Part shown: positions 3,181 through 28,114 of the stretch, one piece after another
How positions within the stretch are numbered: the stretch's first letter is position 1
Layout: each line of letters opens with the position of its first letter
Origin: Blasia pusilla
Lineage: Eukaryota
Assembly: GCA_050084515.1 (NCBI GenBank)
Contig: CM114271.1
Coordinates: 32,364,001 to 32,428,000, forward strand
Direction of reading: 5' to 3'
Length of the DNA stretch: 64,000 bases
Notes under the pieces: model-generated
Database searches by the model: none
The model's input: the letters and a program-made list of their open reading frames with translations, nothing else
Told to the model about the DNA's origin: nothing
Position numbers and translations under genes: made by a program

Positions 3181-3280
3181 CTCGATGAGTTGCCTCGATG
3201 AGTCGCTCGAATCGTCTAGCGATGAGTCGCCTCGATGAATCACCTTGATGAGTCGCTCGAATCGTCTAGCGATGAGTCGC
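3181..3280. repeat. Two tandem 50-bp units built from GATGAGTCGC submotifs
   Basis: 3181-3230 and 3231-3280 are near-identical; absent from the homologous position of copy B. Confidence 0.85.
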
Positions 3281-3459
3281 CGTGTAAAGCGCCCCTTGGT
3301 ATCTAGTCCGCTGAAGAGCAATCAAGATCGCGAAACGAAAAACCTAAAATGAGCAAACCCTAGCCTATTTATACTTTTCGAGCCGTTGGGCTGACCGTTG
3401 TGTCGCACAGTCGTTCCGACGGCGACGTGTCGGCCGTTATGGAGGTTTGGACGTGAAAA

Positions 3460-4020
3460 CCATCAACCCAAAAGTCTCCGATGGGTTGGAGGCATCCGTC
3501 CTAGCCGAGATATCTGGCAACCTGTCGGAGTCCGACATGTTGCGCACCTCCGCTGTCTTGGGGGAAGAACGCGAGATACCCGCGCAACCCGTCGATGACC
3601 GACGGCTTGCACCCTTCCCTTGTCTTGGGATAACAAGGCGGGGTACCTGCGCAACTCGTCGAAGGCCGACGGGTTGCACAATTTCTTCATGTAAGCGTTC
3701 CAAGGCGAGGCACTTGCGCAACCCGTCAAAGGCCGACGGGTTGCACGCTTCCCTCATCTTGGGGTAATAGGCGGGGTACCTGCGCAACTCGTCGAAGGCC
3801 GACGGGTTGCACGCTTCCTTCATGTAAGCATTACAAGGCGAGGCACTTGCGCAACCTGTCGGAGGCCAACGGGTTGCACACTTCCCTCATCTTGGGGTAA
3901 TAGGCAAGGTACCTAGGCAACTCGTTCGTTACAGACAGGTTGCACTCCTTTCTATCCCTAGGGTAACAATGTGACAACGGATAGTTTCGAGGCAACCTCT
4001 TGCAATCCGACGGGTCACAA
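3460..4020. repeat. Tandem array of ~66-bp units with palindrome GCAACCCGTCGGA-N-(T/G)CCGACGGGTTGC
   Basis: Palindromes at about 3517, 3583, 3651, 3717, 3783, 3851, 3917 and 3992. Confidence 0.9.
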
Positions 4021-4954
4021 GATCTACCCTGAGTTGGACAATCCCATAATAGTCCCCAACGATTAGTTACCTTAGCAAATGTGTCAGATATGTCAAAGAT
4101 TTTCACATATCAAAATAGTCCTATCCTCAAAGCCAACAGTCATGTGAGGCTTTGTCCTTCTTTTCTTGGGGGACCTTTTGGCCTCAATAAGGTATTTAAC
4201 ATTATCAGTAAGCTCGTGCGATTCTTGATGATACCCTGCACAAGCCATAGAAGTAATTAGATCATGACGTGTAAATGATAAAAATAGATCATAATCTAGA
4301 GTGCCCTAATGAAATCTAATTGGAGTTATATAAGAAAATGAACTTACTTTTCAAAGTTGATGGCTTCTCTACAAGTGCATCATTATATGACACATTGGAC
4401 GTTGTTTCTTTTCCACTTTGAGCCGATTTAGAGACCATGCGCATGAGTACATTCATTTTCAATTTGGGATCTCATATCATGTAGAACTTCATCCAATTTG
4501 CTCTCCACCTCATTCATGTGGGAAGTGACATCTAATTCAACTCCCTATCAAACATAGTAGATAATTATCATAAGATGACAATACTTTCTCTTCCAAATTT
4601 CCTGATTTTTCCTTTCTATCCATGACTACTACACTAATTTATTTTGAAACTTGTGTGTTACCCGTGATGCCCAACTAAAATCTGTACTGGTGGGGTGTAA
4701 TAATATTACCTCCTCTCTTGTTGTACCATGAACAAAATTGTATCTTTTTGGAACCCCCTAAAATACAATAAGTCGGTGGCCTCGTTTTGGGTTGGGCCTA
4801 TGGAGGACGCGGTGAAGGGAGATGTGTGTGATTGAATTGTGGTGTCATAATTCAAATAAGAAACAAGTACAAATTTCATATGTAAGCTGATGGGAACGCC
4901 TAAATTTTGAGAGGAGAAGAACCCAACAATTTTAAGCTACGTTTTTACAACTAA

Positions 4955-7348: not shown

Positions 7349-8534
7349 AGGAGAGGAAGAGAGGAAGAGAGGAGAGAGGAGAGAGGAAACTACCTTCAAC
7401 CCAAAGAGATACTTTTTTTAAGAGAATTTCTTGTGATTTGAAGAGATTTTCTGTTGGGTTGAAGAAAGGAAACTTTTTGTGTGATCTTTTTTGCAGTTTT
7501 TTTCTCAATTTTAGGCACTCCTACACAATTTTTTTCCTCTTCCACATTTTGGAAACCCGTCAGAATCCGACGGGTTGCAAATTTGCACAAAATTTTAAAA
7601 ACTGAAAAATCATTGGAATCATAAATATGGAACAAATCACTTTTTCCATCCAAGGTCTAGAAAAAATCTATCATTTGCCCTAGGCTGAATAGAGTTCAAG
7701 CTCAAAGTGAAGGTTATGGCAAATGAAAGTATAATCTAAAACCTCATTTTGCATCCTCAAAGTGGTTTGTTTAAAATACTTTGCACTTCTTTGAGGGACA
7801 GAATTGTTTGGTGGATTCCTACTCCTACCTCCGACTCTCTTAAAACTACAAGCAATACATAGTACATGTGCTTACAAGGGAAATACCTTTTCCCACTTGT
7901 CTCTCTTTGGACAAAGTCGTCACAGGAACATGTGGGAAAGCAAAAGAAATGCACCACATACACCTCTGTGACACTTGAATTTACAGTGTTGTTCTTGATC
8001 CAATACATATTTCCTATTCCATTGCCACTCTGGATATCTTTTTTGGCGATGATTTCCATGTTTGCCTCCCGAGCTGATGCGATTCGCTTTGCTCTCTCCA
8101 CCGTTGGCCTACACATTTTTTTCTCTTTACCCCATTTCTAGACTCAGAAAAAAATACTGGATTGAGATCATCCACCTTCTCCGGGTACATATTCACATCA
8201 ATCTTGGGTTGAATACGAAATGCGAAGGTCTCTGTAATGCGAACATGCTCTGAACTTGCTCCATCTACGAGTCTGAAAGGGCACTTGTAAGATTGTCCAC
8301 TTCCTCGTGAGTGCAATTGGTACTTGCGGCAATGGGCCAAATTGTGGGGGTATTCCCTGGAGCTCCAATGGCAGCCAGATAAGACTTTCGGAAAGCGCAG
8401 GATTCATTTGGGTAGAAGAAGTACTTCAATTGATCTCCGGTCCTCGTGAAACGATCAAAGGTTTTGAGTCCCCAAAATCTAGGGAGTGGTCGTCTAGTCC
8501 TTGTACAATTCTTGTTTAGGAAAGTGCCGCATGC
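7349..8534 (-). repeat. Left inverted arm (~1.19 kb)
   Basis: Diverged reverse complement of 26935-28114, including the SWIM-coding region. Confidence 0.9.
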
Positions 8535-9100: not shown

Positions 9101-9624
9101 TGGTCTCAATTGACTCCAGTGCCCTTCAAGGTTTAACTTCTGTGAATATGTGGTTGACATTATGGATTGTTGACTCTTCTTGCAAAAGACATCAAATACT
9201 CATCAATAAGGGGCAAAAGAAAGGCAAAAGGAAATGCCTTTAAATGATTGCTGACTCTTCTTGCAAAAGGCATCAATACTCATCCATAAGGGGGTTTTCC
9301 ACAATAGAACAAATCACTCGTCACTCATGGTAGCCAAAGACTTTCATTTCATCATTTGATGATGTGGGCTTATGAATGGGTGCACAAAGTACACCATGGA
9401 CTACTGTGCGTTTGACAACTTGGTTTCACCATTCTCTCTCCCCCTGATAAATGTGATCACATAGCTGTCAGGAGTAAAGAGGAACTAATCAAAAAGAAAA
9501 TGTGATCAGACGAGACAACAATTGAAGCAAAAGATATTTAGCTGTTAGGAGTAAAGAGGAACTGACGCACCCATGTCCCTTCATTTAGATCCTAAATTTG
9601 AGAATCCGAGAAGCTGCACCCCTC

Positions 9625-9910
9625 CCAACCCGTCGAAATTTGACAGGTTGCAAGTCTTGCAACCCGTCGGAATCGGATGGGTTGCACCCCTTGCAAGCAA
9701 GCTCACCATAACAAAAGAAGTATTTTGAGAAGTGATTCCATTCCGATCTTTTGAGGCATTCTAGCAGGCTTCTTCACTTTTGTCTCGTTCCCCTATTATC
9801 ATCAAACCATTCTTCTCTAATTCTTCTCTTCTCTAAGACGTGTTGGATTCCTACTACTTGTCGGATTGCCATTTGGAATTCCCAACCAGTTGGATTCTCA
9901 ACCTGTCGGA
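9625..9910. repeat. Palindrome cluster
   Basis: e.g. TGCAACCCGTCGGAATCGGATGGGTTGCA near 9658. Confidence 0.75.
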
Positions 9911-10049: not shown

Positions 10050-10637
10050 AGGTTCCTATACAAAAGGAATGTCCTGGGATACAAGTAGACGAGGATAAAA
10101 AATGTTGGGGAATTCGAGAGCCTTGGCCCTCCCCTAGGTACACCATAACGGTCCCATGTAACCTGATTTGAGTCCCACTGCCTTCCTCAGCACTAAATCT
10201 TGTACGCTCTGCAAGGTGACACCCATCCAGTATCAATATGTGCTCCGTCCTTGGAAACCAATAAATCCCTACTCCAAAACGCTTAAGTCAAGATGGGTCC
10301 TTTAGTTCTTTGAACTCACTCCTCATCGTCCGAGAGCTCTTCCAGAATTACTGTCGGCCTTGCCCTCCCGATTTTTAGAATTGTGGGAAGTGACGATGGT
10401 GTCACTATCCATGGTGGGTCTGGAACCGGAGCTCTCGGCTTTGGAGGAGAGTTGTATGCTCCCACTAGCCTGTCGTAATCTACCTTTGCCTCTTTGCAAA
10501 GGTCATAAAGTTCTTGCCTTCCCTCAAGGCAGAGAATGTTCCTGCCACTCTGCCAGGCGCCTCTGATACTCGCCCTTTGATAGGCCCACTAAGTCGAAGA
10601 CCAAGTCACCCGGCCTTGAACAGAGCTCGATGAGCAT
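10050..10637 (-). pseudogene. C-terminal part of beta-class N4C/N6A DNA methyltransferase domain (SAM-binding region); 3' limit approximate
   Basis: MLIELCSRPGDLVFDL...(frameshift)ASIRGAWQSGRNILCLEGRQELYDLCKE; continues the frame GGTEKSPALMQ from the other side of the retro insertion. Confidence 0.7.
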
Positions 10638-11213
10638 TGTCGTGCGAATCCCCATCGTCATATAACATACATCGCTGACATACCATACTCACATACATAC
10701 ATAACATAGACAAGAGTATCCACAAACGCAAGTGTACCACAACTGAAATCCGTGAAAGACCTACTGTCATAAAACACATTTACAATCACATACAATTGAG
10801 CCAAACCCACTCCACGATGGGAGAATCTAGGTCGAAGCTTGCGGGAAACACCATAGCCAAGAGCTCTACTCACTACCAAGGCTAACTCCCAACGCAACAG
10901 GCTCAACTCAAAGAATATTGTTCTTTGAGGGCAAGCCACCTTATATCCTCCAACCTAAGAGCGGGCCCTACTGGGAAAGTCATCCCCAAGTGAGTAACCC
11001 CCAACCCTATGTATGGAACCGCATCTCTACCAAGCCACTACGGTCCTACATAAGGAATGGCCTCTACCAGCACTATACTCTACGACATAATCCGTATGGT
11101 CATGACAGCTGTCGTGCAAATCCCCATCGTCATACAACATACATCGCTGACATACCATACTCACATACATACATAACATAGACGAGAGTATCCACAAAGG
11201 CAAGTGTACCACA
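10638..11213 (-). repeat. 3' terminal repeat block: A (10638-10741), B (10744-11107), GC, A (11110-11213)
   Basis: The two A copies are near-identical (~104 bp); B matches 19566-19917; junction CATGACA-GC-TGTCGTG. Confidence 0.92.
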
Positions 11214-11228
11214 ACTTGCCCCCCTAAC
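11214..11228 (-). promoter_or_regulatory. Polypurine tract
   Basis: Minus strand reads TTAGGGGGGCAAGT immediately before TGTGG, the start of the inner A unit. Confidence 0.65.
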
Positions 11229-11388
11229 TGGCGGTTAGGTCCCTCTAACTCCCAGGTAGCCCTATACATCTACTACATGCTATACACCTTCTTGGGTGCC
11301 CGAATCAGAAGGCCGGGTGCTAGGTTGCCCCATCGTTAGTCGCACATCTGTAATCCATATCATGCAGAGATCAAGTCATCTACCTCTC

Positions 11389-12830
11389 CTAAGTACATCG
11401 AGGACAAACCCACCTTCTAGTAGGAACAACATCCAAACGTGGAGTCAAACACATCATGTGCCAACCCCTAGAACACCGATCACACACCAACATACGGGCT
11501 GCGTTACCAGCAGACCCACACAACATGCACCTCAAGCTAGCACGTATCATGGCTAAGCTTGGGTCAACAGTACCATCCACATTTGGAAGATGACATGGCG
11601 CACAATTACGCACATGGTCCTTCCAAACAACTCCATCACGACCCTCCAACATGAGAGCTCCAGAAGCTAACACCTCACGCACTCGTAAAATAGTGCGGCC
11701 TGCCGTCACATCCAACGTTGTCGGGGCAATCTGCTGCAAATAGACATAGTCCCCCACATGGAACCTACTAATCGATGGTCGATAACCTCCATCCCGAATG
11801 GTTGCATACCGCAACGTATCCCTGTGTTGAGCAATGGCAAGATTCTCAAAGGCTGTTGGCATAACTCTCCGAAAGAGCTCCGCCCGCTGAGAACACACCC
11901 TCATCCACATCTCTGGGTCATCAAGGTCCACCACCTCACTAGACTCCCGACAAATTCTTTGCTTGGCAAGTCCGGATCTCGCCGATAATGAGAAAATAAG
12001 GTGAGAAGGAAGCCAAGGATGCTTGGCGATCGAACCTATACCCCATGGCTAACCATGGCAACTCGAATATCCGGTCTCCAAGATGCCCTTCAGAGGCCAT
12101 ACTTGCGCGATGCCCTCTTCTTCACCGTCGAACCACACGCTCAGCCAAACCATCCGCCTCTGGATTATCTCGAGACGTGGTCCGATGATCAATCAACGCC
12201 TTGTCACACAAGATCTGAAACTCACCCTGAAACTCAGACCTGGTCGGTCAAGACTTCGGTGGTGCACCAAAATGACTAAGCACTCTATCCAGAAATGCAT
12301 ACGCCCGTTCCTCACTTGCCTTGTCCGTAATGCCACCAACTCAATCCACTTGGAGAAGTGCTCCACCATCACCAACACATATCGATGATGTCGCATCAAT
12401 GGTAACGGTCCCCAAAGTCCACACTCCAACGGTAACCCAACCCCATAATAGGCAAGGGGTGTAATTGTGGTGTAGGGGCATTAAATGATGCCCTCACCGG
12501 TCACAAACCATACAACGTGACACCAATCGCTGCACTTGAGTATGCATGCCACGCCACCAATATCGCCAAGGAGTAAGCTATACGACGCTTTACCCCAAAA
12601 TGTCCCAACTCCTCATGGGCATGTCGCACAATGCGCTCTCTGTGAGCCAAATGTGGCACTACTCGTACTCTACCATCCTCCCACATACGGAGAATATGTG
12701 TTCCCTCCAATCGATACCTCTTAGCACGTTGAAGAACACGGTCTCGCTCCTTGGCACTCACTATGCCTGGCACCCTACTGGTCCGTAGGAACTCCAACAC
12801 CAACGCATCATCATGAATATCACGCTAATC
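11389..12830 (-). pseudogene. DDE integrase with C-terminal PHD finger
   Basis: HAHEELGHFG Zn motif; GPLP...YVLVMVEHFSKWIE rve core; CMLC...LVCDRCSRGWHMMCLTP...WVCPRC is a C4HC3 PHD at ~11395-11535. Confidence 0.9.
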
Positions 12831-13049
12831 CGCACCACCATCTCCAACCTTAGGATCTCAAGGTGGCCATCTACCCTCGACTAGAGTAAGATATCATGTG
12901 GTCCTCCATACTAGAGTCCACCCCTTACCAACATAAAAAGGGGGATGCATGCCAACCTGGCACCATCTCCTCATCAACCTTGCCATGCCATCTAGCCCCA
13001 GTTGGATCCTCTTGGCTAGTACATGGGTTCCTACTCAACCCATCAAAGC

Positions 13050-14380
13050 ATCAAGGTTGGCAACTCTGTGTCTATGTACCACTTGGAAGTCATACTCTGT
13101 AAGATAAGAGCCCACCGTGCAAGCTTCCTGTAAGCTTGTCCGACTCCATCAACCACTTGAGCGGTGGTGATCAGTAACAAGGGTAAACGTGTGCCAAACA
13201 AGTAACACCTAAAGTGTGCCACACCACACTCGCCAAGCACTCTCCCTCATATGAACTATAGCGCGACTCATTTGCATTATTCGAACGACTTGCATAGGCC
13301 ACCACAAACTCCATGTGCTCATCATCATGTTATGTCAACACCGCTCCAAGTCCCAACCTACTCCAATCGTGTGTAATCGAAATGGGCGCCTCGATAGGTC
13401 TCCTCAAGATAGGCGCCGCCACCAACTCGGGCCTTAAGCTCCCCAAAAGCTCTCTCCGATCATCTCCCAAAGTGCCACTCTTGATCTCATTTCAGCAATT
13501 GGTTCAAAGGCTTTGCCATAGCACTAAATCCCTTCACATACCTCCGATAGTAGTTCGCCAATCCCATGAATGCTCGAACTCTACTCACATCTACCGGACG
13601 CAGAATAAGTGCAATAGCCTCCACCTTTGCTTGCTAAACTCCCAAACCACCTGGATAGATCACATGACCCAAGTACTCAACATCCTCATGGAAGAACTTA
13701 CACTTTCCTGGATGCAAACATAGACCATGAGCTTTCAACCGCTCAAACACCATCTGCAAATGTATCTGATGCTCCTCCACCGTGTTACTGAACACCAAGA
13801 TATCATCAATGTAACACCGAACAAAATCCAACCCTGCTAGGATCCTGTCCTTGAAACTCGGCAGGTGCATTCTTCAACCCAAAGGGTAAGAATTTCCACT
13901 GGTACAAACAATCCTTGCCATGAGAGTTGACACCCCAAAATGTTGTCTTGGCCTTGTCACTCTCCCGAATCGGCAATTGATGGTATCTTGCCCGAAGATC
14001 CAAAGTACTGAAAATATTTGCCTGTCCCACCACATCAAAGATCTCCTCAGGTGTAGGCATGGCATACCTATCGGCCTTGGTTTGCCGATTGATAGGACGG
14101 TAATCTCCACACATCCACCTATCCGTGTAGTTGCCGTGCATATCCTTTTAGCGAGCATGACAAAGGTGGGCGATGCATACTCTCCATGCGACAACTCCAC
14201 TAATCCGGCCTCCAAAAGGTCCAACGCCCTACTCTGAATCAGGTCCCTCTCCATATCACTATATCGGTAGGGACGACGGAAGATTGGCGTATCACTAGCC
14301 AAATCAATCCGTATACCGGGTCCAACCAGAGAACCCAACTCCTTCATGCTAAAGGCAAAACAACTCCTATAAGCACGTAG
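13050..14380 (-). pseudogene. Reverse transcriptase + RNase H (Gypsy-type)
   Basis: RMCGDYRPIN, FSTLDL..YHQL, LPFGLKNAP, CYIDDIL, KCKFF..VEYLGH; RNase H HFRCYL, KLARWALILQ. Confidence 0.95.
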
Positions 14381-14749
14381 GAACTGTGTCAGCGTCGTTT
14401 CTCACCTCCCGTAAGCTTGGGCCCAAGTAATGGCTCCCAAGTCTCCTCCTTTGGCATACTAGAGGGAGAGGCGATGCCATTGGTCGCTACGCAACCCCCT
14501 CACAAGATGATACACCCTTAGCTACACCATCATCCGAGCAAATAACTCCTCCACCAAAGCATGAGCTACCAACTCCACATGCCCAACCATTACATCCCAT
14601 TTACTCCAAGGATGCAAAATACTACTCTCCTCGCCCCTTTGACCGATGCCTCTATCGCCCGGTAGCCATCGAGCTCATTACAAGGGGTGGAAGACCCATG
14701 ACATAGTCCGAAATCGACGCTCGCCACCCATACCAAGACTCAAAATCCA

Positions 14750-15700
14750 AGTCAAACAATTCAGGTCCATGGCTGACCCAACACATGACGTCGTGAAGCC
14801 TCAAAAATAGAAGCAACGGCATTTGTCACACCGAAGAGCAAATCCCATCGACGCTCTCTCTCATCGGTGTTAGGCTCCACCAACCGCCGCGACATGAGAA
14901 TCCCATACAAGCCCCGGACCACCTTCCCTGTAGGCATGTGACGCTGGAAAACTCACAAATGTGGGTAGTGCCATCCTAGGTCGGCCCACACGGTTCACCA
15001 CGCCATGGGTGACCGATCAATAACCCTCACCACTTGAGAAAGTCGCCCAAGATTCAAGATACTATCCTTTGTAAGGTGAGGATCCGGCCTGCACCTTTGC
15101 ATCATATGCTCGACGTAGAACCTCCCTAGGCAACAAGTTTGTCCACCACAAGCGTGGGCGATGTGCACGCTGAGCCAACTCATGTTGCATCCAACAATAC
15201 CGCTGGTCCAATCCAAGACCGCACTCATGAACACTCGCCATCATCCGGGTCCGAGTGTCACCCAACAATGGAACATTCTCGAATGTAAGCTAGAGCACGT
15301 GTGCGATGAACTGAAGATGTCGTAACACCCGTAACATCTCCCAAAACAATCGAGACCTAGGGTCATGTAATCCCTCACCACGACCAAAGACGTGTATGAC
15401 CCCGACATGGCCATCCAAAGCAATCACCAAATCCACAGGACCAACCCTCTCAAGGTCCTGCGCCCCCAACAATGCAATGTGTGATGGTAAAGCACGCTGG
15501 TACCCACGAATAGCGATGGCGGCAACAACTCGGATATCTCGCATCAATCGACCAATATGTCGGGATGAGACTCTCTGGGCCGTCTCATCTCGCTCCACAT
15601 ACACGTATCTCCGACAGAATACCGCCCTGCAACATCGCCGCCAAACCGGTGCTAATCCCACCAAAGAGATTTAACACACAAATGCCCTCCGGGGATCTTG
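14750..15700 (-). pseudogene. C5 cytosine DNA methyltransferase domain within pol
   Basis: Motif I VLNLFGGI; motif IV VDLVIA-GWPC.GH; SRLFWE; motif VI ENV; motif VIII RAHRPRLWWTNL; motif X RHVLGQAMD. Confidence 0.9.
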
Positions 15701-16049
15701 CGCCATACAATGGATGTAGTATCCAAAGGGGATAACCCCAATCGGGCAGAAGTAGGAGTCCGTGGGGCCTCCTCTTCCTCGTGAGGTATAATGACCTCAC
15801 ACCAAGCCTCCTGCACTAGGCGTCAGCCTCTGCCGTAGTGCACCCCTGAACTCCAAAGTGGCACATCCGATGAGGATGCCTTTGCTGCAAAAATAGGGAC
15901 CTCCTCTTCCTCCTTATGCGCAGGAGAATCCATAGCGAAACATTACCCTCCAAAAGTCTCTGGCCAAGTGACTACTCCACTAAAACCAGACCCACAGATG
16001 CTAACATCTGTTGGGGAAGACCCTCATGGTCGAGCCCCGAAATAAATCT

Positions 16050-16500
16050 CACAGAACTTGGCTCATACGTCCATCCCGGATCGCCAACCTGGTCTATAAG
16101 ACGCTGTCTCACTCCAAGTAATCCATCTGAAAACCCATCGGGTACAATCATCGCTCCTCCAACTAGTACATCATACGACTCGACCGGTGATGTGACTACC
16201 GCAGATATTCCCAACCGGGAGCTATCGGTCGCATGATCCGGTCTCAACTGCATGAGAAAAATTCTCCCGTGTCATGAATTGAGACCTATCATTGGCTCCT
16301 CCAAGTGATGTTTGAATCTGGAATGGGCAAGGCTCAAGCTCGACCTCCGAATACCCAAACCAATACATGCCGCCTTTCCCAACATCAAGGTTGGGCACCG
16401 AGTCTAACAAGACTCTATCCGGTCTATACACCTATCTGTAGGACTCACCAATCAGAAGATCCCACCGGTTGTCCAACATACATACACCGGTGTAAGCCTC
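16050..16500 (-). pseudogene. Aspartic protease remnant
   Basis: RVLLDS(G) active site and YDVLVGGAM C-terminal motif. Confidence 0.75.
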
Positions 16501-16899
16501 TCACGATCAATGGCTGGCCGGGCCGGTAATGCATCCATCTTCGCTTTGCTACCCGCCAAGTAGCTTTGGTACTCAATGCTACTCGACATAGAGGGTCACT
16601 CCACCGCAACACCCTCATCCACCTCAACACGTAGCAAGAATAACACCCCACGTTCACACAACGTGGTCGCTAATCGAAATACAGGTGCTAAGTCAACTCC
16701 TAAAGCCATCGCTCCGTGGTGGAAAACAATGAGATCCCAACACTGAAGTTGCCATCCGCACATCGATCGATCTTTGCATCCGTGTCTACTACACGCGATG
16801 TAGATGCCTCAGTCCCCACTGTCGGCTCAATAGGCTGCGTAGGAACCATGGATGGAGTCCTAAGCACCTCAGACAACAAGAATGACTGGGGAAGCCTAG

Positions 16900-18460
16900 C
16901 TTGCCTCCCAGCCTCACCCCTCTGTGGGTCCAACTCCTGAGAGCACAACGTGGCTCGACGCTTTCGAGTGGCTCCTCAGAATCGCAGCCGGTGATGCCTC
17001 AACTTTTGTCCGCACTCGCCATATAAGAGAGATCATCCCCTCCATAAGAGGTGGAAGCCCTGCTCCCGAACTTGATCTATATGTCGGATACCGACCATAG
17101 TAGCCAACCGCTCCAATCGCTCAATCTCGGCGACCATAGCGACTCTGTCGAGTGGTCGGGTAGCCACCGTAGGCTCTCCAACCACTGGTCCACCTCTACC
17201 ACCCCTACCATCTCTACCACCTCGGCCTCTCGGAGCTACTCCACCAAGGCCACGGCCTGATCTCAACTCTGGATGAAGATCAAAGCAACGCTCTCGAGGA
17301 TGACCTAGTCTCCCGCAATGATCACACTGAGTTGGGGCCGACTGAGGCCCATCCTCCAAAGTCCGTCTCCCATCCTCTTGGGGACAAAACTTCCTAACAT
17401 GATCACCTCCACATGTCCAACATGACTGTCCTTGCTGCGGGGCAGCAAATGAAGGCAATGGTCTCTGCAAAAATGTCCCTCTAGGACTTGATCGAGGTCG
17501 CGTGTACCCCCACGACTCCCACTACTACTACCACCACCACTACTACGAGCGTGAGGTGGGCGGCTGAACACGAGAAGTAGTAGTTGTATCCCCTCTTGAA
17601 TGCGGATGTCACCACTCTCTCCTTCACCATGTTAAGCTCAATCTTCTCGAGATAGAGCAAACACATGGATCAATGTGGGTGAATCATCACTCATAAGAGT
17701 AGCATCACGCACCCTACGGCGCAAATCTCTCGTCCAAGATCCCATACCAAAATCGGATCGCTGATCCTCGTCACACCTGGTAATCGAAATCAAGCGTCGA
17801 TACGCTGGCGTGTATGCCTCACGAAGACTCTCACCAGTCTTTCGCTCAAAGTCTGAAGATTCCTCAACTTCTCCGTCTTCACTCCTTGATAGTTCTTCTT
17901 CAACCTCTTGAAGAACTCGCAATCGGGCTAAATGATGGTGGGGCACTAGTACCTCCACTAGAACCCCACTAGTACCTCCACTTTGGTACCCCCACTCCGG
18001 CTCGCACTGCGTACCACTCAACGTCGGGCTGGCTGGCATAGTAGGAGCACTACTACCAATACCACCATGGGTGATAGACACATAGCCTGGAGACCAATAT
18101 TGTCTCCATGCCTCAATCTCAGCAACATGGTCCTTCCTAAACTCATGGTAATCATCCATGGGTGGTCCTTCCAAGTGCTGAAACAACCCTTCCAAGCCAA
18201 GAAGGGTGTAAACAACGTGGCATTCCGCAACATCTGCATATCACACCACGTATCAAACTCCTGCATGAAGTCCTCCAACTCAATGGTACCCACTGCACCC
18301 GAGTATCGTCGTGGGCCCTTCATGGCCCCATATCCACCGTCCATGTCCCAAATCAATGGAGCGCAACACTCGATAACAACGTAGAAGACTCGGTGTTTGG
18401 AACACCTCGCCCTCCTCTTCATCAACCGTCGGAAGTGGAAAAGGTAGCCGATACCTAAAT
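16900..18460 (-). pseudogene. gag with two zinc knuckles
   Basis: CWTCGGDHVRKFC and CDHCGRLGHPRERC; GESLREAY capsid-like motif. Confidence 0.85.
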
Positions 18461-19553
18461 CCACTCCATGTGAAACCACCACTGTCCGCACCACGGTCCC
18501 CAACCAGACCACCCGACAGCTCCGTGATGACCAACGCCGATGCCGCACCACCACCAAATTACCAAGTAACGTCGATGTCGCTATACTATTCTAGCTCTAC
18601 TAGCTATGGGTGTAGGCAACCTAACTTGTCATCACCACAAGAAGTCTCCCACAATCTACTCGTCATCCCTCCAGCCTCACTACCGGTAGCACACAGGAGT
18701 AACACTACTCTGGAAATCAACGTCAACCCTAACAATGGGCGCGCAAGCAAGAAGCACGATGGAGGGGATCCAAACAGAGGAAATCCAACGACAACCCTCC
18801 AATCGCAAATGGAAATCAAGGTAACACAATCCACCAAACGTGGTGCCCTCTGAATCCACAAAACCCACCACACAATTCTAACGCAATAGCTACTCCGCCG
18901 CGGGTCGATGACGTGCTAGTCGAACGCGCAGCACCTAAAAATATCACCTGCATGGCGAGGCTACACCGTACTATGCGCTAGAGGTACATCAACCAAAAAC
19001 TTGAGATGCATAAAGCGCCTAACACATCTCCGAACAGCACCAAATGAGCTACAACAGTCTGTACACTAGCATAGTTAAGAACTCGGCGATTAAGCGTCCT
19101 CCGAGAATAGCCCAAAGATGGGTGACCAGTTATGCAAAACTCAAATCCCAAATCCTGCAAAAATTGCCTCACGCCCAAGCAAGCAAGCTTGCTTGCTTGC
19201 TCCTTGCTCCTTACTCCGCCTCTCACGCCCACTCGCCCCGAGTTGCCTCGAAGCCTCTCACCCGATCTGGATGAACTTCAACACAGCTTCCGCACTCCAA
19301 GCTCTCCACATCAGAAAACCGTCGAACACGAACCAGAATCTTCAATCCTTGATAACTTCCAACTCCCTTGACGAAAACCGGCGATCTAAAGCGCATTGGA
19401 AAGCTCTCAGCAAGGCGCTTCTTTCCCAACCAATCGCGCACCAGATTCACACCTCCAACATAGGCCACAAGCCACGAACATCCACGGCTGAGTACACAAT
19501 CAGCCCTAACAAGATCCTACTGATCTACAATCGAAGCTACCATCGATCTACTC

Positions 19554-19565
19554 CAGTTCTTTGAG
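19554..19565 (-). promoter_or_regulatory. Putative self-priming primer-binding site
   Basis: Minus strand CTCAAAGAACTG directly follows the ...TTTCA end of repeat B and is complementary to minus-strand CAGTTCTTTGAG (19740-19729), which starts 29 nt downstream of TATAA (19769-19765). Confidence 0.75.
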
Positions 19566-19917
19566 TGAAATCCGTGAAGGACCTACTGTCATAAAACACG
19601 TTTACAATCACATACAATTGAGCCAAACCCACTCCACGATGGGAGAATCTAGGTCGAAGCTTGCGGGAAACACCATAGCCAAGAGCTCTACTCACTACCA
19701 AGGCTAACTCCCAACGCAACAGGCTCAACTCAAAGAACTGACTGTTCTTTGAGGGCAAGCCACCTTATATCCCAACCCTACTGGGAAAGTCACCCCCAAG
19801 TGAGTAACCCCCAACCCTATGTATGGAACCGCATCTCTACCAAGCCACTACGGTCCTACATAAGGAATGGCCTCTACCAGCACTATACTCTACGACATAA
19901 TCCGTATGGTCATGACA
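19566..19917 (-). repeat. 5' terminal repeat B (TG...CA, contains TATA box)
   Basis: Matches 10744-11107 apart from a short deletion; no A unit at this end. Confidence 0.92.
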
Positions 19918-20274
19918 GCATTTGCATCAAGGCAGGGGACTTTTCCGTTCCTCCAAGTAAGGGGGTCCTGTCTTGCATGTAAATTCCCGGGGGAATTGTA
20001 TAAACTATCTAAGTTGTACCCATCAAAGCATGGATTGATTGGATCTAGGATCTCGAACACTTGGAAGTTGTGCTCGGGCCTTACAAAATAGTAGACAAAG
20101 GAGTGGTCCATCTGTAAAGAAGCAGGTTGGAAACAATGTCAGAAAAAAGAAAGAGCTACTTGACCGTTGGTCTACTCTCAATATGGTGACACAATGTGCA
20201 ACATGTCCATAGTGCATTCTAGTCCTTGTTGATTACCAACTCATAAGAACTTGGCCTATAGTCCTAACAGTAGA

Positions 20275-20615
20275 GGAACCTGTCGAAGTCCGACGGGTTG
20301 TTTTACAAGTGGAAGTGTTTTTTTTGCCATGAGCAACCCGTCGAAAGCCGACAGGTTGCTAGCTTAGAGTAACCTGTGGTTGGCTAAGAGCAACCCGTCG
20401 CTTTCAGACGGGTTGCATCACTCCAGAAACACAAGGAAAAGCACAAGTACTTGCAACCCGTTGGATTCCAACAGGTTACACTCACTCAATGAGACTTGTG
20501 GTAAATTTGCAACCCGTCGCTTTCAGACGGATTGCAAAACCGTAGCCACAAGCTTGTGGGATCCAATAGGTTGCATGCAGAGATGCAACCCGTTGGAGCC
20601 CGACGGGTTGAATTT
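20275..20615. repeat. Palindrome cluster in intron 2
   Basis: About six copies (near 20277, 20333, 20390, 20453, 20508, 20585). Confidence 0.85.
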
Positions 20616-22719
20616 GGATTAAGAGCACTTACCCGGACTTGACTCATCGCCAATCGGAGTGGATACTCGTTCTTGATGACCCATGATTGCACTGTCCTCC
20701 ACTTCAACGACCTCTTCACGCATTGAAGGTTGAAGAGCTTGTCCTTGGTCCCTCCAGTCAAGACCAAGAAACAACCCTGTCACTCAGATAAGCGTCTGCA
20801 AAAGAAAACAAGAGCGCGATCTGGTCGTAGGAAAGAGGGACAGTGCAGTCTAGGACAGTGTCAGATGGATTGTTGTCCCACAAGCGAAACCCAAAGGGCA
20901 AATTTTGTGATGAGGAGATCCACCGCCACCTCCTCGACCACCCCATGGACCGTCGAGAGAGCATGCACATTTCGTTGAAGGTTTTGTCCCAGCATGGTCA
21001 ATTTGTCGATGGCGAGTGTCGACTCCTGGGAACTAAAACTTTGCAGCTCATCCACAAGATGAGTGAAGTGAATGAGGATATTTGTCCTAGTCGTTTTTTC
21101 TCTATGCCTTCCCAAGGATGATGGAGTGTATTCCATATCCTTATCTCCTCCCTAGGACAAACCAAACGCCTCCCGCTTTCGCTTCTCCCGAGTCTATGGT
21201 CGGCCTATGGGGGTATCTGTTACCTCAGACTCCATTGGAGTTTTCTTGGCGGAGGATCTGGTCTGGCCCTCTCGCCCCGCTTGCTCGGACGATTCCACCT
21301 CTCGCCTTGAGGTATCAGCCTCTTTTTTGGAAGAATCGACCTCAAAATTCTTCGCTCCCCTCGCCTTTGCTTTCAAACCCGCTATAGATTTGTTCTTGGT
21401 GGTGACGACCTTGGACACCAACTCCACTGTCTTGAGGGCTTGCTCCTCCGCATCTCCTTCAAAAAATCTTTAGGATGCATAAAATTTGGAATGTCGTCCC
21501 TACCTGCGACCACTGCATCATAGACCAGACATAGATTTTTTTCGGTTATGTCCTTAGAGTCGTTGAAGTCCAACCAGATTGGGCGATTGTCAACCTCCCA
21601 ATCGGACATGCCCTATGCCATCTCCATGTCGTACATAGATAATGCCTCTCCATCAGGCGGAGAAGCCCACAATTTGCGGGCTGCCGGTATGTTTCGCCAA
21701 GCACCTGCATTCTTACAATTGATGAGGTACCTGTACACCATCCGTCGGGCTGCTCTTTGTCAAGATGAATTGGCCGCCTGCTCCTGAAGATCCCGCTTCT
21801 TCTTTGCGAAATCCCTTTTTTTGGCGTCAATTTCTTCATCCAGGTCTGCCTAAGGGAGGATGTGATTCTTGAACATCATCCTGAAGCCTGGATTTTTCGT
21901 GGGCTTGTCTCGGATGCCATCAAGCCATAGTTTGAAATCTTCTGCAGTTTCTAGGTTTGGTTCCTCCGGAACTGGCTCAATCTTCTCCAGCTCTGCTTGA
22001 AGACCCATGAGCATGGACTTCCCGAGAAGCGGCAACGCATCCCAGAATGACCATTCACTTAGCCAATGGGAGATCATTGGATCAGAAACTCCCGGAGGAT
22101 GGTGTGCCGCCTGCTTTTGGGCCTCTGTGCCCTCCACACTGATTTTCATCAGTCAAATTCTCCTAAACTCAGAAATTCCAGACAGTGCAAATTTGTGAAC
22201 GCGGTCCATAGACACTTTCTCGCCGATCCAACCCTATAGATCTTCGTCTCTCTTCCGCTGACGCTTGGTTATCGCCTTGAGCTCCTTGTAGAATTCTGGG
22301 CCAAGTTAGGGGTTCAGAATGGCAATGTATCGCTGCATCTTGCTTGCAGTGTACTTCATAGCTGCAGATATTGCAGACTTGATAAACTTTGCACGTTCAG
22401 ACGCAGACATGTTCCCCCTTCGCTCCAATTCCAATGAAGCGCTCTTCTTGGCAGCCTGGATCTTCGACCAACAAAGGATTGTGACGACTGCATCTTAGGA
22501 AATGAAGGTATTTGCCCAAGTCTTCTTTTTAATTTGAGCCCCCTTCGCCAGCATCTCATTTACCACAGCGTCGCCCAAGAACCCCTTGTACTCTGTCGGG
22601 TCCGTCGTAAGCACCTTTTTCACCTTGTCACAATCCTAGATCCAATGGTGGGTGACATTCCCCTCGGATACAATCCTGTACATCCAAACACACGCTAAGA
22701 ATTATTGCAAGCTACTAGG

Positions 22720-23385
22720 TTCCTACAACCTGTCGGACTCTAACTGGTTGCAAGACCTGGTGGTCGAAATGGTGGCATAGAGAAAAATATTGCAATCCGT
22801 CAGAGTCCGATGGGTCGCAACACCTTTTTTCTGTTACACTTATTGCAACACTCAAGCAAATTTTGAGACATAATTGCAACCCATCAGAGTCCGAAGGATT
22901 GCACTCGGATTTTGTGATTTTCTAGTCCATCCGTTTTGGTCCTTGGCTACAACCCATCGGACTCCGACGAGTTGTAAAAAATAGCATATATCAACCCGTC
23001 GAAGTCCGACAGGTTGCGCAATTTGTTGTAAAGGTGGGATTGGACGCCTAAAAGCAAGCTCTCCTACTCCGACCACCTACCTATGGGGGCAAATGCAACC
23101 CGTCAAAGTCCGACGAGTTGCTTTCGGCCAAAAATCCCAAAAATAGCGGACAGTCCTATTTTTAGGCGTCCGATGATTTGTTACCACTAGTTTAACAACT
23201 CGTTGAAGTTTGACGGTTTGCAGAACATATAAATCATGCACTCATTTTTACACCCGTCGATGGTGGACTGGTTTTGGTATCCCAGCTTTCTCTAGTGTGC
23301 TTGGCCACCAGGCAACCCGTCGGACTCCGACGGTTTGCTTGAAGCTTTCCAATTATGCAACCCGTCTGACACCGACGGGTTGAAG
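22720..23385. repeat. Palindrome cluster in intron 1
   Basis: About nine copies, e.g. GCAACCCGTCGGACTCCGACGGTTTGC near 23312. Confidence 0.85.
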
Positions 23386-24904
23386 CAATCAAAATTAAGG
23401 AAGAGGAAACTTACCCATTCATGGCATGGATTGCCATTTCCACCGTTGCCATGTGATGAGGAAAATGCGCCTCCAATGAATTTGGGCGCTCCTATGTAAA
23501 CTGGGTCCACACCATGTACTTGTGGTTTCCATCCCAGATGAAGAAGTAAAGGTTCCGCATCCAGCTAAATTGCGTCCCCTCAATCGCTCTTCTGAACTCC
23601 TGATCTCTCATCCTCCAGAATGTATCGAGCGCTTCCAAGTCCTCTTCCGTCACTAGCGCTTGGGTTCCATGTTCATCGTAAGGCTGAACATAGAACGGAG
23701 AGAAGCTGTCGACGTAGGATGTTGTCACTGCCGACTATTTCAACTTTGTAATATCCTCCTCCGAATGAATTTTGCGGACGTACTCCATGGTCCGCAATCG
23801 GCAAAGTAGAATTCTCAGGGCGTTTTGGCCCTCCATCAGTGCCATCTGCTTAACAACTTGCCACAATGGGGACCAAGTCAATAAACTACACTGTTTTGCC
23901 AATGAATTGCATCATGGGCCTTCACATAACTCAAACGTTTCTTACCCGCTCAAAGATTGGGTCGGTGTCTTGGCCGACCAACTGCTTTGGGACAATAGCT
24001 GGCAAATCCACAAGAAACTCATCGATCCGATAAAGGTCGATTTCTTCGGCCGGGATCAAAGACGAGGAAGACTGTTCTCATGCTTCTTCAGAGATGTCCA
24101 CCATCTCCACGCTTGCCGTCCTCATGACTTCATCGTCCGTCACTTGAACTTCGGCCGTTTCCTCAGCCGATTTTATATTCATGGTGTCCCCACTTTTCAT
24201 CGGGGACATTTCCTACACCTCAACACTCTGTGTTGGACGGGCAGGGCTTTCTTCAATGGCAATCACTTTTTCCCTTTGAGCTTTTGCCAATTCTGCTCTC
24301 CTCACGGACGCGTCCAGACGCTTTTTCTCACGTTTCTCGTCGGCGACTTTTCTCTTCAAGGCCTACGATGCCTCAGCCTCGACGTTTTGTTTTTTTGAGT
24401 GCCACCAGAACACGTTTTGCAAGAAGCTCCTACCTGTGCATATGTGATTCCCTTTCGCGCTCCTCTATCTCTTGCTGCCTTATCTCATTGGCCGAACGAG
24501 GCCCTAGAGATGGTGACGCAGGAGTCCTCATGGACTTGGGAGTGATGCTCCCTACCTTGATTGCTTGCATTTTTTACCTCGTCATGGTTCCCATCAATGC
24601 TTCCTCCTCGACAGTCTAGTCTCTTTCTGTGCACGAAAATTCCCTCGAATGGTCTCGCGATGAATTTCCGTGACCCTGGACCCAACTCTCTTTGCGTTTT
24701 GTGATGAAGCGCCCTCACCCTCCTCACTTCCCTTGGTATCTAGTCAGCGGCTGCGCGGAAGAGCACATGAAATCGCGAAATGAAAAACAAAAATGAGCGA
24801 AACCTCGGCTATTTATACTTTTCGAGCCGTTGAGCTGACCGTTGGGTCGCACCGTTGTACCGACGGCGACGTGTCGGCCATTATGGAACTTTGGACGTGG
24901 GAAC

Positions 24905-25840
24905 CCAGCCAACCCGACGGTCTCCGACTGGTTGCACGCTTCTCGCGTCTTTGGGATGCAGGGCGAGTTGCCCAGGAAACTTGTCCGAGACCCATGGGTT
25001 GCACGCATCCGTCCTCCTCGGGTAACAAGCCGAGCTACCCTGGCAACCCGTCGGAGACCGACAGGTTGTACGCCTCCCCCGTCTTGGGGTAACAACGCGA
25101 GATACCCGCGCAACCGATTGGAGACAGGGGGATTGCATGCCTCCCTCGTCTTGGGGTAACAACGCGAGGTGCCTGCACAACCCGTCGGAGACCGGGAGTT
25201 TGCACGCTTCCCTCGTCTTGGGATAACAAGGCAAGGTACCCGCGCAACCTGTCGGAGGCCGACGGGTTGCACGCTTCCTTCATGTTGGCGTTACAAGGCG
25301 AGGTACCCGTGCAACCAGTCGGAGGTCGACGGGTTGCACGCTTCCCTCATCTTGGGGTTACAAGGAGAGGTACCTGGGCAACCCGTCGGATACCGATAAG
25401 TTGCACTCTTTTCTCTCCCTCGGGTAACAATGTGACAAAGCAGAGTTTTGAGGAAACCGGTTGCCCTCCGACGGGTTACAAGGTCTACCCGGAGTTGGAC
25501 ACTTCCCAACATACGGCAAAATTGCACTCATGGTTTGCACGGTTAATTGAATAAGAGAAATCGACCCGAGATGCAAAAGGGAAAGCAAGGTTAGGTACCT
25601 TTGGATCCCATAACAATCACCAACGGATTGCCGTAGCAAATCCATGCGATATCTTGTGTTTGATGCTAGCAATCTCGACTCAAATCACATTGGTCAGACA
25701 AGAAGGGGATACCAACCCAACGGACTCCGATAGGTTGCAACTCGCATTGGGGCACTAACAGAAAATGGAACTCCGAGCTTCGCAACCCACGTGTCCGAGT
25801 CCCAAATTCTGCAACCCATTGGACTCCAACAAGTTCCAAC
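24905..25840. repeat. Tandem palindrome array in the divergent promoter region
   Basis: ~67-bp spaced copies at about 25043, 25109, 25177, 25243, 25311 and 25378, plus 25712 and 25810. Confidence 0.88.
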
Positions 25841-26019: not shown

Positions 26020-27700
26020 TGGATAATTATGTGAAGCTCACTTGTGGCAGTCATCTGGCGGCCCTTCCTCAATCAGAAATAGTTCGACCGCAAGCTCGTG
26101 AGTCTTTCATACCAGTGGATTGAATTTTTCTCTCTGTTCGATTTCTTCTCCAAATTAGAACCATCTTTGTGTCCAAGGATGTTAGGGTGGACGGTACGGA
26201 GGACATAATAGGTGAGACAGTCCAGCCAGTGATTGTAGACCATAAAGTATGGAATCTCCTACCTCTAGCAAATGGTCAATACGGAGTTTACGGCTTGCCT
26301 CTGAATTCCTGTGTTTCCCAAGTAGACGGTCAAGAATTTCCTAGTGCACCGAGCTCTACGTTTGCAACTCCGAGCTCAATAGATCCGGCATTGGCTCCAA
26401 CTTCACACGTTCGTAATAATGTTGTACTTCTTGAAGACATTCCTGATGTCATCAACCTCAGTGGATCTGTCAAACACCAACCGGGCCCTCTGTCCGCCTA
26501 CTCGTTCCTCTTGCGAGTATCAGGCAATAGTTTGCTGTCGTCTCTGCCCTTGAAAATATTCAAGCATATTCTTGTCGACGAGCTGCCGCCCACGTACGAT
26601 GGTAATTGCATTTTTGAGTTGTCTCCACTTGCTGCTCCTGCTCAAAAGAAAGATGGAGGACGCTTGAAGGGTATGGACAGAAAGTTTGATTGTCATCAAT
26701 GGTGCAGGCTTCAGTGGACTAGTGCTTCAATTCCATATGGTCCTTGGATTGTCTCTGGCCGTCAATACGTTGGAGCCTTGGAGTGTAGAAGTCCTGCATG
26801 CCCGTATCTAGAGCACAACAGGCGAGTCAATACGTCGTAATTTCCCCCCAAGAATGCAGAAACTCCATATGAAGTCGGCGCGACCATACCGCCGGGGAGC
26901 CATCGATATCCTCATTGTCACGCATCCCCTTTCTGCATGCCGCACTTTCCTAAATAAGAACTGTACAAGGACTGGACGACCACTGCCTTGATTTTGGGGA
27001 CTCAAAACCTTTGATCGTTTCACGAGGACCGGGGATCAATTGAAATACTTCTTCTGCCCAAATGAATCTTGCACTTTTCGGAAGTCTTATCCGGCTGCCA
27101 TTGGAGCTCTAGGGAATATCCCCACGATTTGGCTCATTTCCGCAGGTACGAATTGCACTCAAGACGAAGTGGACAATCTTACAAGTGTCAATTTCAGACT
27201 CGTAGACGGAGGAAGTTTGGAGCATGTTCGCATTATAGAGACCTTCGTATTTTGTATTCAACCCAAGATTGATGTGAACATGTACCCGGAGAAGGGGGAT
27301 GATCTCAATCCACTAATTTTGTTTGAGTCTAGAAATGGGGTGAAGAGAAACAGAATGTGTAGGCCAACGATGGAGAGAGCAAAGTGAATTGCATCAGCTG
27401 GGGAGGCAAAAATGGAGATCATTGCCACAAAAGATGTCCAGAGTGGCAATGGAATAGGAAGGATGTATTGGGTCAGGAACAACACTGTAAATTCAAGGTG
27501 TATGTGGTGCACATCTCTTGCTTTCCCACATGTTCATGTGATGACTTTGTCCAAAGAGAGACAAGTGGGAAAAGGTATTTCCCTTGTAAGCACATGTACT
27601 ATGTGTTGCTTGTAGTTTTAAGAGAGTCCAAGGTAGGAGTAGGAATCCACCAACCATTCTGTCCCTCAAAGAAGTGCAAAGTATTTTAAACAAACCGCTT
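26020..27700 (+). pseudogene. Internally deleted transposase-like gene: GCM/WRKY-like Zn domain joined to SWIM C-terminus
   Basis: GMDRKFDCHQW...GALECRSPACPY; abrupt switch near 26935 into the arm sequence; PTCSCDDF...PCKHMYYV. Confidence 0.55.
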
Positions 27701-28114
27701 TGAGGATGCAAAATGAGGTTTTAGATTGTACTTTCATTTTTCGAGAACCTTCACTTTGAGCTTGAACTCTATTCAGCCCAGGGCAAATGATAGATTTTTT
27801 CCAGATCTTGGATGGAAAAAGTGATTGGTTCCACACTTATGATTCCACTGATTTTTCAATTTTCTAAATTTTGTGCAATTTGCAACTCGTCGGACTCAGA
27901 TGGGTTGCCAAAATGTGGAAGAGGAAAAAGAAAACTGTGGGAATGCTAAAGAACTGAGCAGAAAAGTGCAAAAAAATTCACACAAAAAGTTTCCTCTCTT
28001 CAACCCAACGGAAAAATTCTTCAAATCACAGGAAACTCTCTTCAAATAAAAGTATCTCTTTTGGTTGAAGGTAGTTTCCTCTCTCCTCTCTCCTCTCTCC
28101 TCTCTTCCTCTCCT
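26935..28114 (+). repeat. Right inverted arm
   Basis: Reverse complement of 7349-8534. Confidence 0.9.

Follow-up and report, generated by a model that had tools for sequence, protein, structure and literature searches.

A three-exon gene split by a retrotransposon

The window analysed here, a stretch of 64,000 nucleotides from Blasia pusilla (contig CM114271.1, positions 32,364,001 to 32,428,000; all positions below are counted within the window), is eukaryotic DNA rich in repeats. On its minus strand lies a gene, hereafter copy B, that spans ~24.6 kb down to 10316 and is split by an insertion of 9,284 bp. The gene has three exons and is present in many repeated copies, of which copy B is a pseudogene; an intact member would encode ~1100–1200 residues, with a K/E-rich N-terminus, a ParB-N-like region carrying the motif DGNHR, a confidently predicted all-helical middle and a C-terminal domain resembling the beta-class (permuted) N6/N4 amino-methyltransferases. 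A preliminary description of the locus had proposed a ParB/Srx-like and DNA methyltransferase gene inside a DNA transposon, legible only once the insertion is removed. The parts of copy B are listed below.

23415..24585, minus strand: exon 1 with a putative start, K/E-rich N-terminal region and ParB-like region; G/GTAAGT donor at its end
22676..23414, minus strand: intron 1, GT-AG, phase 2; four palindrome copies inside
20633..22675, minus strand: exon 2, all-helical middle domain and N-terminal half of the methylase-like domain
20112..20632, minus strand: intron 2, GT-AG, phase 0; five palindrome copies inside
19917..20111, minus strand: exon 3, first part; ends ...GGTEKSPALMQ M L- at the retrotransposon junction
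10633..19916, minus strand: long terminal repeat (LTR) retrotransposon insertion with LTRs, a gag-like open reading frame (ORF), reverse transcriptase and PHD finger; private to the window copy
10316..10632, minus strand: exon 3, remainder; MLIELCSRPGDLVFDL as motif X/I block, followed by ASIRGAWQSGRNILCLEGRQELY past a frameshift near 10583; stop codon 10318–10316

The peptides quoted in the preliminary description are all present on the minus strand. IWDGNHK lies in exon 1 (DGNHK at 23533–23519), within ORF 23734–23495, which is matched by the profile of the protein family introduced below (E 2.3e-15, profile positions 140–217). In exon 2, VDLLIT is followed by an extra base at 20905 and, immediately after it, by NLPFGFRLWD...FADAYLSD, in which NLPF is motif IV (20904–20893). 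DGNHR is found in a second copy of the gene, copy A (2120–2106), and GGTEKSPALMQ ends the first part of exon 3. The open frames carrying these peptides run from ~24.6 kb to 19917 and again from 10632, where MLIELCSRPGDLVFDL begins at the junction opposite to that of GGTEKSPALMQ. Joined by coordinates (20008–19917 plus 10632–10585), the two flanks give a single frame, IVYTIPPGIYMQDRTPLLGGTEKSPALMQMLIELCSRPGDLVFDLV / ...GGTEKSPALMQMLIELCSRPGDLVFDLV. The retrotransposon sits within exon 3, with motif X on one side and motif I on the other.

Two GT-AG introns separate the exons. The acceptor of exon 2 is at 22675 after ...TGTACAG and its donor at 20633 before GTAAGT; exon 3 is entered at 20111 after ...TTTACAG. 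Across intron 2 (...AMSQVR/MDHSF...), splicing fills a gap of three residues in the alignment to relatives. The spliced conceptual protein, 1015 residues of which 15 are X, yields one alignment to a profile of 65 relatives (positions 103–1094 of 1280, 326.8 bits, E 9.3e-99), and the junctions of both introns are gap-free in it; a match of this strength is far beyond chance. Thus, the three exons are right, as had been foreseen, and the joined frame confirms that the gene can be read only with the 9.3-kb insertion taken out.

The insertion shows the features of an LTR retrotransposon: direct LTRs (10744–10915 = 19566–19737 and 10966–11109 = 19776–19919, 99% each), a flanking duplication, a reverse transcriptase (PF00078, E 1.6e-15 and 3.2e-9) and an empty site in other copies. 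A PHD finger stands at the end of its pol (E 8.5e-11). The target-site duplication had been given as GCAT. A repeat is indeed present at both junctions, but it reads AGCATT (10633–10638 and 19917–19922), and because GCAT sits within this hexamer the length of the duplication is ambiguous, 4 to 6 bp.

Empty sites came from a comparison of 8500–26500 with public reads under the same species label (one genomic run, two RNA runs and one contig set, at 80% likeness). Genomic reads spanning a joint from 10632 to 19917, which skips 9284 bases, number 416 and begin at 187 different places; the joint also occurs in 3 contigs and in 7 RNA reads (1 + 6). Since these reads join 10632 directly to 19917, other family copies are without the insertion; the contrary outcome, that the two flanks would nowhere be joined, had been named in advance as grounds for rejecting the gene. 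The retrotransposon itself is transcribed from the minus strand, with RNA depth up to 189 a bin.

Several observations concern the retrotransposon and its kin. At 5732–6209, a solo-LTR-like copy shares 92% identity with the inserted element's LTR, and the last 107 bp common to the 3' LTR and the solo copy are missing from the 5' LTR. Related LTR retrotransposons occupy 10633–19916 and 45800–51000, both with extra ORFs (15290–15815, minus strand; 48466–48879, plus strand). A C5 cytosine methylase identity for these extra ORFs, based on a resemblance of motifs, was dropped when Pfam and PDB sequence searches with the pieces gave nothing.

Copy number, decay and a second copy

Read depth was taken from 1.97 Gb of genomic reads, ~1 in 100 of the run, with both mate columns summed. 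Over the gene it is ~500–1150 a bin, which for a gigabase-size genome means hundreds to thousands of copies and bears out the expectation of a highly repeated family; no bin falls below 254, so the depth contains no single-copy baseline. Most of the reads (130,146 of 156,193) are less than 95% alike to the window, so the family is old and diverged.

Between 8500 and 26500 there are 1655 places at which the window disagrees with at least 30% of reads, and A>G or T>C accounts for 663 of them. These two classes dominate the differences and imply that the window copy has decayed by G-to-A and C-to-T substitution, as deamination of methylated cytosines in a repeat would produce. The T of GGTEKSP is private to the window copy: at base 19947, 809 of 821 reads in one run differ from the window, which turns the T into R. 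Reconstructing the frame over 23911–10316 took 5 changes of frame and the reading of 12 stops as X, and the stretch 22635–21385 by itself holds 7 in-frame stops in 417 codons of one frame, with no frameshift. These 12 stops and 5 frameshifts, which are minimum counts, make copy B a dead pseudogene from which no protein is made. RNA depth on the gene is low (0.2–11 a bin) and greater toward the 3' end; first mates are on the plus strand, like those of the minus-strand retrotransposon.

Copies also differ in length. In most other family copies, ~30 bp replaces 22690–23311 in intron 1, and 195 reads skip from 22689 to 23312. On the 3' side of the gene, 10007–10276 is skipped by the joints 10006 to 10277 and 10025 to 10260 (~90–108 reads each) and 9093–9497 by the joint 9092 to 9498 (32 reads). 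Since most other family copies skip them, the two latter stretches are private or subfamily insertions.

The second copy lies at the start of the window.

1..4040, minus strand: copy A, second decayed copy, 77–83% identical to 21113–25501; with upstream palindrome array

Copy A is truncated by the window start ahead of the methylase part. It reads DGNHR where copy B reads DGNHK.

Relatives in a liverwort

When the middle exon, translated through its stops (P0001), served as query in an exhaustive phmmer search, 33 proteins reached E<=0.001 and 16 of these <=1e-10, at 23–35% identity. Of 30 relatives looked up, the liverwort Riccia sorocarpa accounts for 21, all hypothetical proteins, and contigs for the other 9. 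The longest relatives, P0038 (1207 aa) and P0008 (1191 aa), display the whole architecture: a low-complexity N-terminus precedes ...FSTWDGNHRLITW..., a long middle follows, and ...ADCLYLDLPTGL...GDIVIDFAGGWGATLQAA... lies in the C-terminal part. When the profile of 65 relatives was run against the 2584 ORFs of the window, all 11 matches at E<0.01 fell in copy A or copy B, in collinear order.

Searched singly, pieces of the gene had no match in Pfam, in PDB sequences or in phage genomes: Pfam returned nothing relevant for 10 individual ORF pieces and for two read-through translations, and the PDB sequence search with the ParB read-through and family profiles A1 and A2 found no match. A tblastn search of phages with the C-terminal window piece and the ParB read-through gave either nothing or a chance match under a host-specificity gene, and none with the family member P0012. 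A word-index search among longer proteins with a 187-aa piece of copy A found nothing, the Atlas held no usable match to it, and a narrow phage ParB-methylase profile run over all 2584 window ORFs had no match in the gene.

A methylase-like domain with an altered catalytic loop

The C-terminal domain was traced through its relatives. The joined methylase part of the window scores 28.7 bits against the family profile (E 4.6e-8, 2584 targets), where the best of 500 shuffles reaches -0.9 bits. Pfam PF01555 matches four Riccia members over their last 50–54 residues (E 9.4e-6 to 2.6e-3) and is precomputed for 5 of 26 near-length relatives, some of which bear the UniRef name 'DNA methylase N-4/N-6 domain-containing'. 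PHROGs 'DNA methyltransferase' families match 3 of 3 domain-bearing members (E 4e-9 to 9e-7). As a reference set we used 70 complete phage proteins of 380–470 aa, from IMG/VR contigs picked by motif pattern; of six fusions sampled from it, PF01555 is found in all and ParB_N in five. The family methylase domain aligns with these 70 phage fusions in hhalign at 95% probability (E 3.8e-8; 69 columns over motifs X, I and II). A tblastn search of phages with the family member P0039 gave 48 weak matches; among the 15 listed, all 14 that are annotated lie under methyltransferase genes (E 0.01–0.2).

Comparison of folds pointed the same way. With the AlphaFold model of P0039, Foldseek returned 16 matches at E<=0.001, led by CcrM (E 1.2e-5), M1.HpyAVI and M.BceJIV; below these leaders came MboIIA (1.1e-3, just above the line) and MT-A70 enzymes. 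VIA rows that align 140–161 residues (Z 5.4–7.0) comprise M.BceJIV, MboIIA, M.RsrI, CcrM, MTA1c, TTHA0409, M.PvuII, M1.HpyAVI, rotifer N4CMT and METTL3/14, and every row aligning at least 140 residues is a permuted amino-methyltransferase. The motif order of the gene is itself permuted: NLPF precedes ..EKSPALMQMLIELCSRPGDLVFDL across the insertion in the window, and the Riccia relatives have the same order.

Several points count against this assignment. The Riccia scores for PF01555 (18.2–26.2 bits, over profile positions 165–218 of 221 only) lie under the gathering cut-off of 26.7. The P0039 model has a mean pLDDT of 49 and TM-scores of 0.3–0.46, and because its confidence is low the fold assignment is weakened; the VIA Z values of those rows, <8, are middling and level with those of small unrelated folds. 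The methylase pieces of the window alone match nothing in Pfam or phages, and the narrow phage profile scores the joined window domain at -0.4 bits, a value reached by 2 of 500 shuffles. Pfam, PHROGs, hhalign, Foldseek and VIA nonetheless agree, and the descent of the C-terminal domain from permuted (beta-class) N6/N4 DNA amino-methyltransferases is supported, as the preliminary description had read it.

The catalytic loop departs from that of its supposed ancestors, a second point on which that description was borne out. Motif IV is N-L-P-F in the window and not the canonical (D/N/S)PP(Y/F/W). In 26 Riccia rows it reads DLPS, DLPT, DMPS, DMPT, DMPI, HLPS, DLSS or DMSS, so that the canonical form occurs in 0 of 26, with no proline pair and no aromatic fourth residue. 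Motif I (FxGxG) is DFAGGWGA in most of the 26 rows shown and frameshifted in the window copy, where it reads DLVGLSKG/ASIRGA. The motif IV loop and motif I GDIVIDFAGGWGA are nevertheless strongly conserved among the diverged Riccia copies. Because none of the 26 Riccia members is canonical or aromatic at the fourth residue, ordinary amino-methyl transfer is argued against, and N4-methylcytosine (4mC) or N6-methyladenine (6mA) activity of the Riccia relatives, judged by this motif, is doubtful.

A ParB-like region and a helical middle

The ParB/Srx reading of the N-terminal region appears plausible from its sequence. DGNHR is kept in 11 of the 16 family rows shown, and in copy A. Under relaxed settings, hhalign against phage ParB_N recovers the ParB order of elements with a 35-residue insertion, and this weak alignment pairs I-P-L..R with I..L.P..NPR, the LQTEALKKSF helix with l..SI..FG, DGNHR with GGHqR, RVRCV with EVpcv, and VAMHNLN with iAlNk. 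Atlas clusters are ParB_N for 2 of 30 matches (score 0.92) and the fungal Starship cargo family DUF3723 for 8 of 30 (0.94).

The motif and the order of elements thus fit the ParB/Srx identity first suggested, but other evidence stands against it. The hhalign statistics are weak (E 0.013–0.04, probability 1–3%). Pfam ParB_N (PF02195) matches none of 23 family members even at E<=5 and none of the window pieces, and a PDB sequence search with the ParB-like part found no match. The first 138 residues of P0012 are modelled by AlphaFold at pLDDT 26–70, and Foldseek with this ParB-plus-middle model returned no match at E<=0.001. The middle 260 residues are modelled confidently (pLDDT ~90) as an all-helical domain. 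VIA rows for the same model cover helical hairpins of the middle domain only (Z<=7.9), and since Foldseek matched nothing and VIA gave hairpins only, this domain has no assigned fold.

Palindromes, an inverted repeat and a neighbouring reading frame

A 27-bp palindrome recurs around and within the gene. It consists of GCAACCCGTCG, a 5-base spacer and CGACGGGTTGC, and has 26 matches in the window at <=3 mismatches and 0 in 100 shuffles. It folds strongly as single-stranded DNA (hairpin z-score -6.15), and no Rfam family matched it. The palindromes and associated features lie as follows.

24903..25410, unstranded: tandem array upstream of copy B; 67-bp period, 7.6 copies, the unit holding the palindrome; 5 matches at 24909–25404
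3506–3925: tandem array upstream of copy A; 67-bp, 6.3 copies; 6 palindrome matches at 3517–3877
22991–23383: palindromes in intron 1 of copy B; 4 copies
1612–1834: palindromes at the copy A equivalent of intron 1; 2 copies
20275–20611: palindromes in intron 2 of copy B; 5 copies
9615..9696, unstranded: palindromes 3' of gene B; 2 copies, 9625–9685
7349..8534, plus strand: left arm of an inverted repeat, 89.7% identical over 1193 bp to 28114–26935; palindrome at 7552–7578
26935..28114, minus strand: right arm of the inverted repeat; palindrome at 27882–27908
26124..26840, plus strand: ORF-X, diverging from the ParB-methylase gene across the palindrome array

The 1.2-kb inverted repeat brackets gene B, its palindrome array and ORF-X, and the palindromes of the two arms are in mirrored positions, ~200 bp from the outer ends. 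Both outer ends begin with a (GAGAGGAA)n run. The arms could be terminal inverted repeats of a unit of 11.5 kb, the retrotransposon not counted.

ORF-X is 40% identical (E 1.45e-14) to residues 123–213 of Riccia P0032, the other half of which belongs to the ParB-methylase family. Besides P0032 it has four more Riccia relatives (P0068–P0071), and the locus tags of P0068 and the family member P0015 are two apart. Because P0032 is chimeric and these two tags lie so close together, linkage of ORF-X to the ParB-methylase gene seems conserved. No Pfam family matches ORF-X. The wider ORF-X region reaches 26124–27387 (plus strand), partly inside the inverted-repeat arm, and has Cys-rich stretches.

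It is plausible that the gene resides inside a DNA transposon, as had been proposed. The flanking inverted repeat, which carries the same palindrome, speaks for this; three results speak against it: no target-site duplication was found at the inverted-repeat ends (7349/28114), no transposase was found among the ORFs of the unit, and, because depth varies from 254 to 1209 a bin over the length of the unit, a single element is not proven.

Elsewhere in the window, long ORFs with a reverse transcriptase domain and no LTR context (52310–55091, plus strand; PF00078, E 1.6e-11) are probably a non-LTR retrotransposon. A tRNA gene at 60525–60597 (plus strand; RF00005, 65.5 bits) is the sole Rfam match in the window.

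What does the gene family do?

Taken as a whole, we lean toward the explanation that the repeated ParB-methylase family acts as the accessory gene of a DNA-transposon-like unit. In such a unit, the N-terminal and helical parts of the intact protein would recognise the 27-bp palindromes, as ParB recognises parS. Recognition would then bring the methylase-like domain, presumed to bind S-adenosylmethionine (SAM), to the element's own DNA, which it may mark or organise. A point against this mechanism is that we infer the binding of palindromes purely by analogy.

An extended form of this explanation, which we consider rather improbable, supposes a bryophyte transposon lineage with a chromatin module that addresses the element itself and descends from prokaryotes or phages. 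A ParB-like clamp dependent on nucleoside triphosphates, parS-like palindrome arrays in flanks, introns and terminal repeats, and a methylase-derived domain with a rewired loop, (N/D)(L/M)P(F/S/T), would together write an unusual DNA mark (6mA, 4mC or other) on copies of the element itself, or protect these against silencing by 5-methylcytosine of the host. If this were true, self-addressed elements could be a source of their hosts' own N4/N6 methylases.

Alternatively, the methylase-like domain could be a pseudoenzyme: the protein would still serve its element, by loading on the palindromes in the manner of ParB, by partition or by guarding it against silencing, and the C-terminal domain would bind SAM or DNA and transfer no methyl group. 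In the amino-methyltransferases studied, an aromatic residue and a proline pair are required for catalysis, and METTL14 (EPPL) is an inactive partner. The D(L/M)P(S/T)G loop of the Riccia members, which in none of the 26 is canonical or aromatic and which is strongly conserved along with their motif I GDIVIDFAGGWGA, would suit such a protein. However, the window lineage keeps an aromatic fourth residue in N-L-P-F, and the conservation of motif I suggests that use of the cofactor is retained. We regard this alternative as possible and, on the whole, unlikely.

The gene could also be passive cargo, or a host gene family amplified in the repeat, without a part in the biology of the element, and with the palindromes forming a separate family of miniature inverted-repeat transposable elements that favours the neighbourhood. 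The place of the palindromes speaks against this: the array occupies the same upstream position in copies A and B, and both arms of the inverted repeat carry a palindrome at mirrored positions. ORF-X, moreover, is tied to the family in Riccia too, through the chimeric P0032 and the tags of P0068 and P0015, two apart, and a report on red algae, in the part of it available, pairs ParB-domain genes with inverted-repeat arrays (10.1101/2025.02.11.637652). What recommends passive cargo is the lack of any transposase found in the unit, the variation of palindrome-bearing stretches between copies, most of which are without 22690–23311, and the different depth of parts of the unit; on balance we find it improbable.

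That the C-terminal domain is an RNA methyltransferase of the trimethylguanosine synthase kind is very hard to credit, for although UniRef automatic names read 'Trimethylguanosine synthase' for 9 of 26 near-length relatives and VIA ranks the tRNA methyltransferase Trm14 first (Z 8.4, with only 76 residues aligned), Pfam scans gave no RNA cap methyltransferase family, all family-level matches are DNA N6/N4 methylases, and motif IV ahead of X-I is the permuted beta-class order.

Under the accessory-gene explanation, and if intact members are active, a land-plant transposon family would bring its own DNA-binding and DNA-marking machinery, an idea that, in the published excerpts at hand, has been raised only for algae and briefly. 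The family is large in the species of the window and in the liverwort Riccia, it has candidate cis sites in the arrays of the 27-bp palindrome, and its non-canonical loop is conserved; these features make possible a clean biochemical test of palindrome binding, nucleotide binding and methyl transfer. For annotation, the lesson is that nested insertions and C-to-T decay can conceal the long, multi-exon accessory genes that transposons carry.

Comparison with known systems

Fusions of ParB with N6/N4 methylases are common in phages, as stated in the accessible part of 10.1101/2025.10.10.680097. The phage and prophage ParB_N-N6_N4_Mtase fusions (~410–450 aa) have the same domain order as that proposed for the window family. 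They differ in their canonical DPPY, in being one third as long and in having no 600-residue helical and linker middle; their ParB alignment to the window family is not significant (E 0.013–0.04), and the window pieces miss the phage profile.

Among eukaryotes, Marchantia MpDN4MT1a/b and rotifer N4CMT share the prokaryotic-type beta-class N6/N4 methylase fold; rotifer N4CMT (8s9n) is among the VIA matches (Z 5.6, 146 residues aligned). These are single host genes that have no ParB-like part, and MpDN4MT1 retains TSPPY according to the portion of 10.1101/2021.02.12.428880 consulted, whereas the window family has NLPF or D(L/M)P(S/T). The chlorophyte-type Dam with an N-terminal ParB-type helix-turn-helix is another eukaryotic combination of a ParB module with an adenine methylase of phage origin, as outlined in excerpts of Iyer et al. 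(PMC4738411). It differs in belonging to the Dam/M.EcoKI-like group and not to the permuted beta-class, and in that, by the same excerpts, the ParB helix-turn-helix is fused and not the ParB N-terminal domain (PMC4738411).

Closer parallels come from algal transposons. In Plavaka elements of the red alga Bostrychia, ParB-domain accessory genes lie beside tandem inverted-repeat arrays, and self-binding has been proposed, so far as the available text of bioRxiv 10.1101/2025.02.11.637652 goes. PAG2 and PAG3 of Plavaka, as presented there, join a ParB-homologous N-terminal domain to a nucleic-acid-modifying domain, as the window family may do with its ParB-like region, and inverted-repeat arrays adjoin the gene in both; in Blasia they do so at both copy A and copy B. 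Unlike the Blasia gene, PAG3 bears a 2-oxoglutarate oxygenase, the methylase (with SET) is on a separate protein, PAG2, and the Plavaka elements are DDE transposons, again in that partial text.

The nearest likeness is the giant transposon Sola1-1_Ec32 of Ectocarpus, for which the sections of PMC12477816 at hand describe a 1104-aa accessory protein with ParB-like and N4/N6 methylase domains. Its length (1104 aa, compared with 1191–1207 aa in Riccia), N-terminal ParB-like region and C-terminal N4/N6 methylase domain all resemble those of the window family. Sola1-1 is a repeated mobile unit, as the carrier of the window family plausibly is, and the Sola1-1 protein has been proposed, in the same sections, to bind and modify its own element (PMC12477816). 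We liken the two by description, not by sequence: the Ectocarpus protein is not among the 33 matches of the middle-domain search. In those sections the Ectocarpus gene stands opposite a Sola1 transposase, and none was found in the Blasia unit. The hosts differ too, Sola1-1 residing in a brown alga and the window family being akin to liverwort sequences.

In the literature searched, we found no report of a ParB gene of such kind in bryophytes. Accessory genes that combine ParB-like and N4/N6 methylase parts are already in print for transposons of brown, green and red algae, in the passages of PMC12477816 available, so a ParB-methylase gene in a transposon is not in itself new. Because such genes have been reported in algae, the window gene is of a known kind, one that those passages describe only briefly and in algae.

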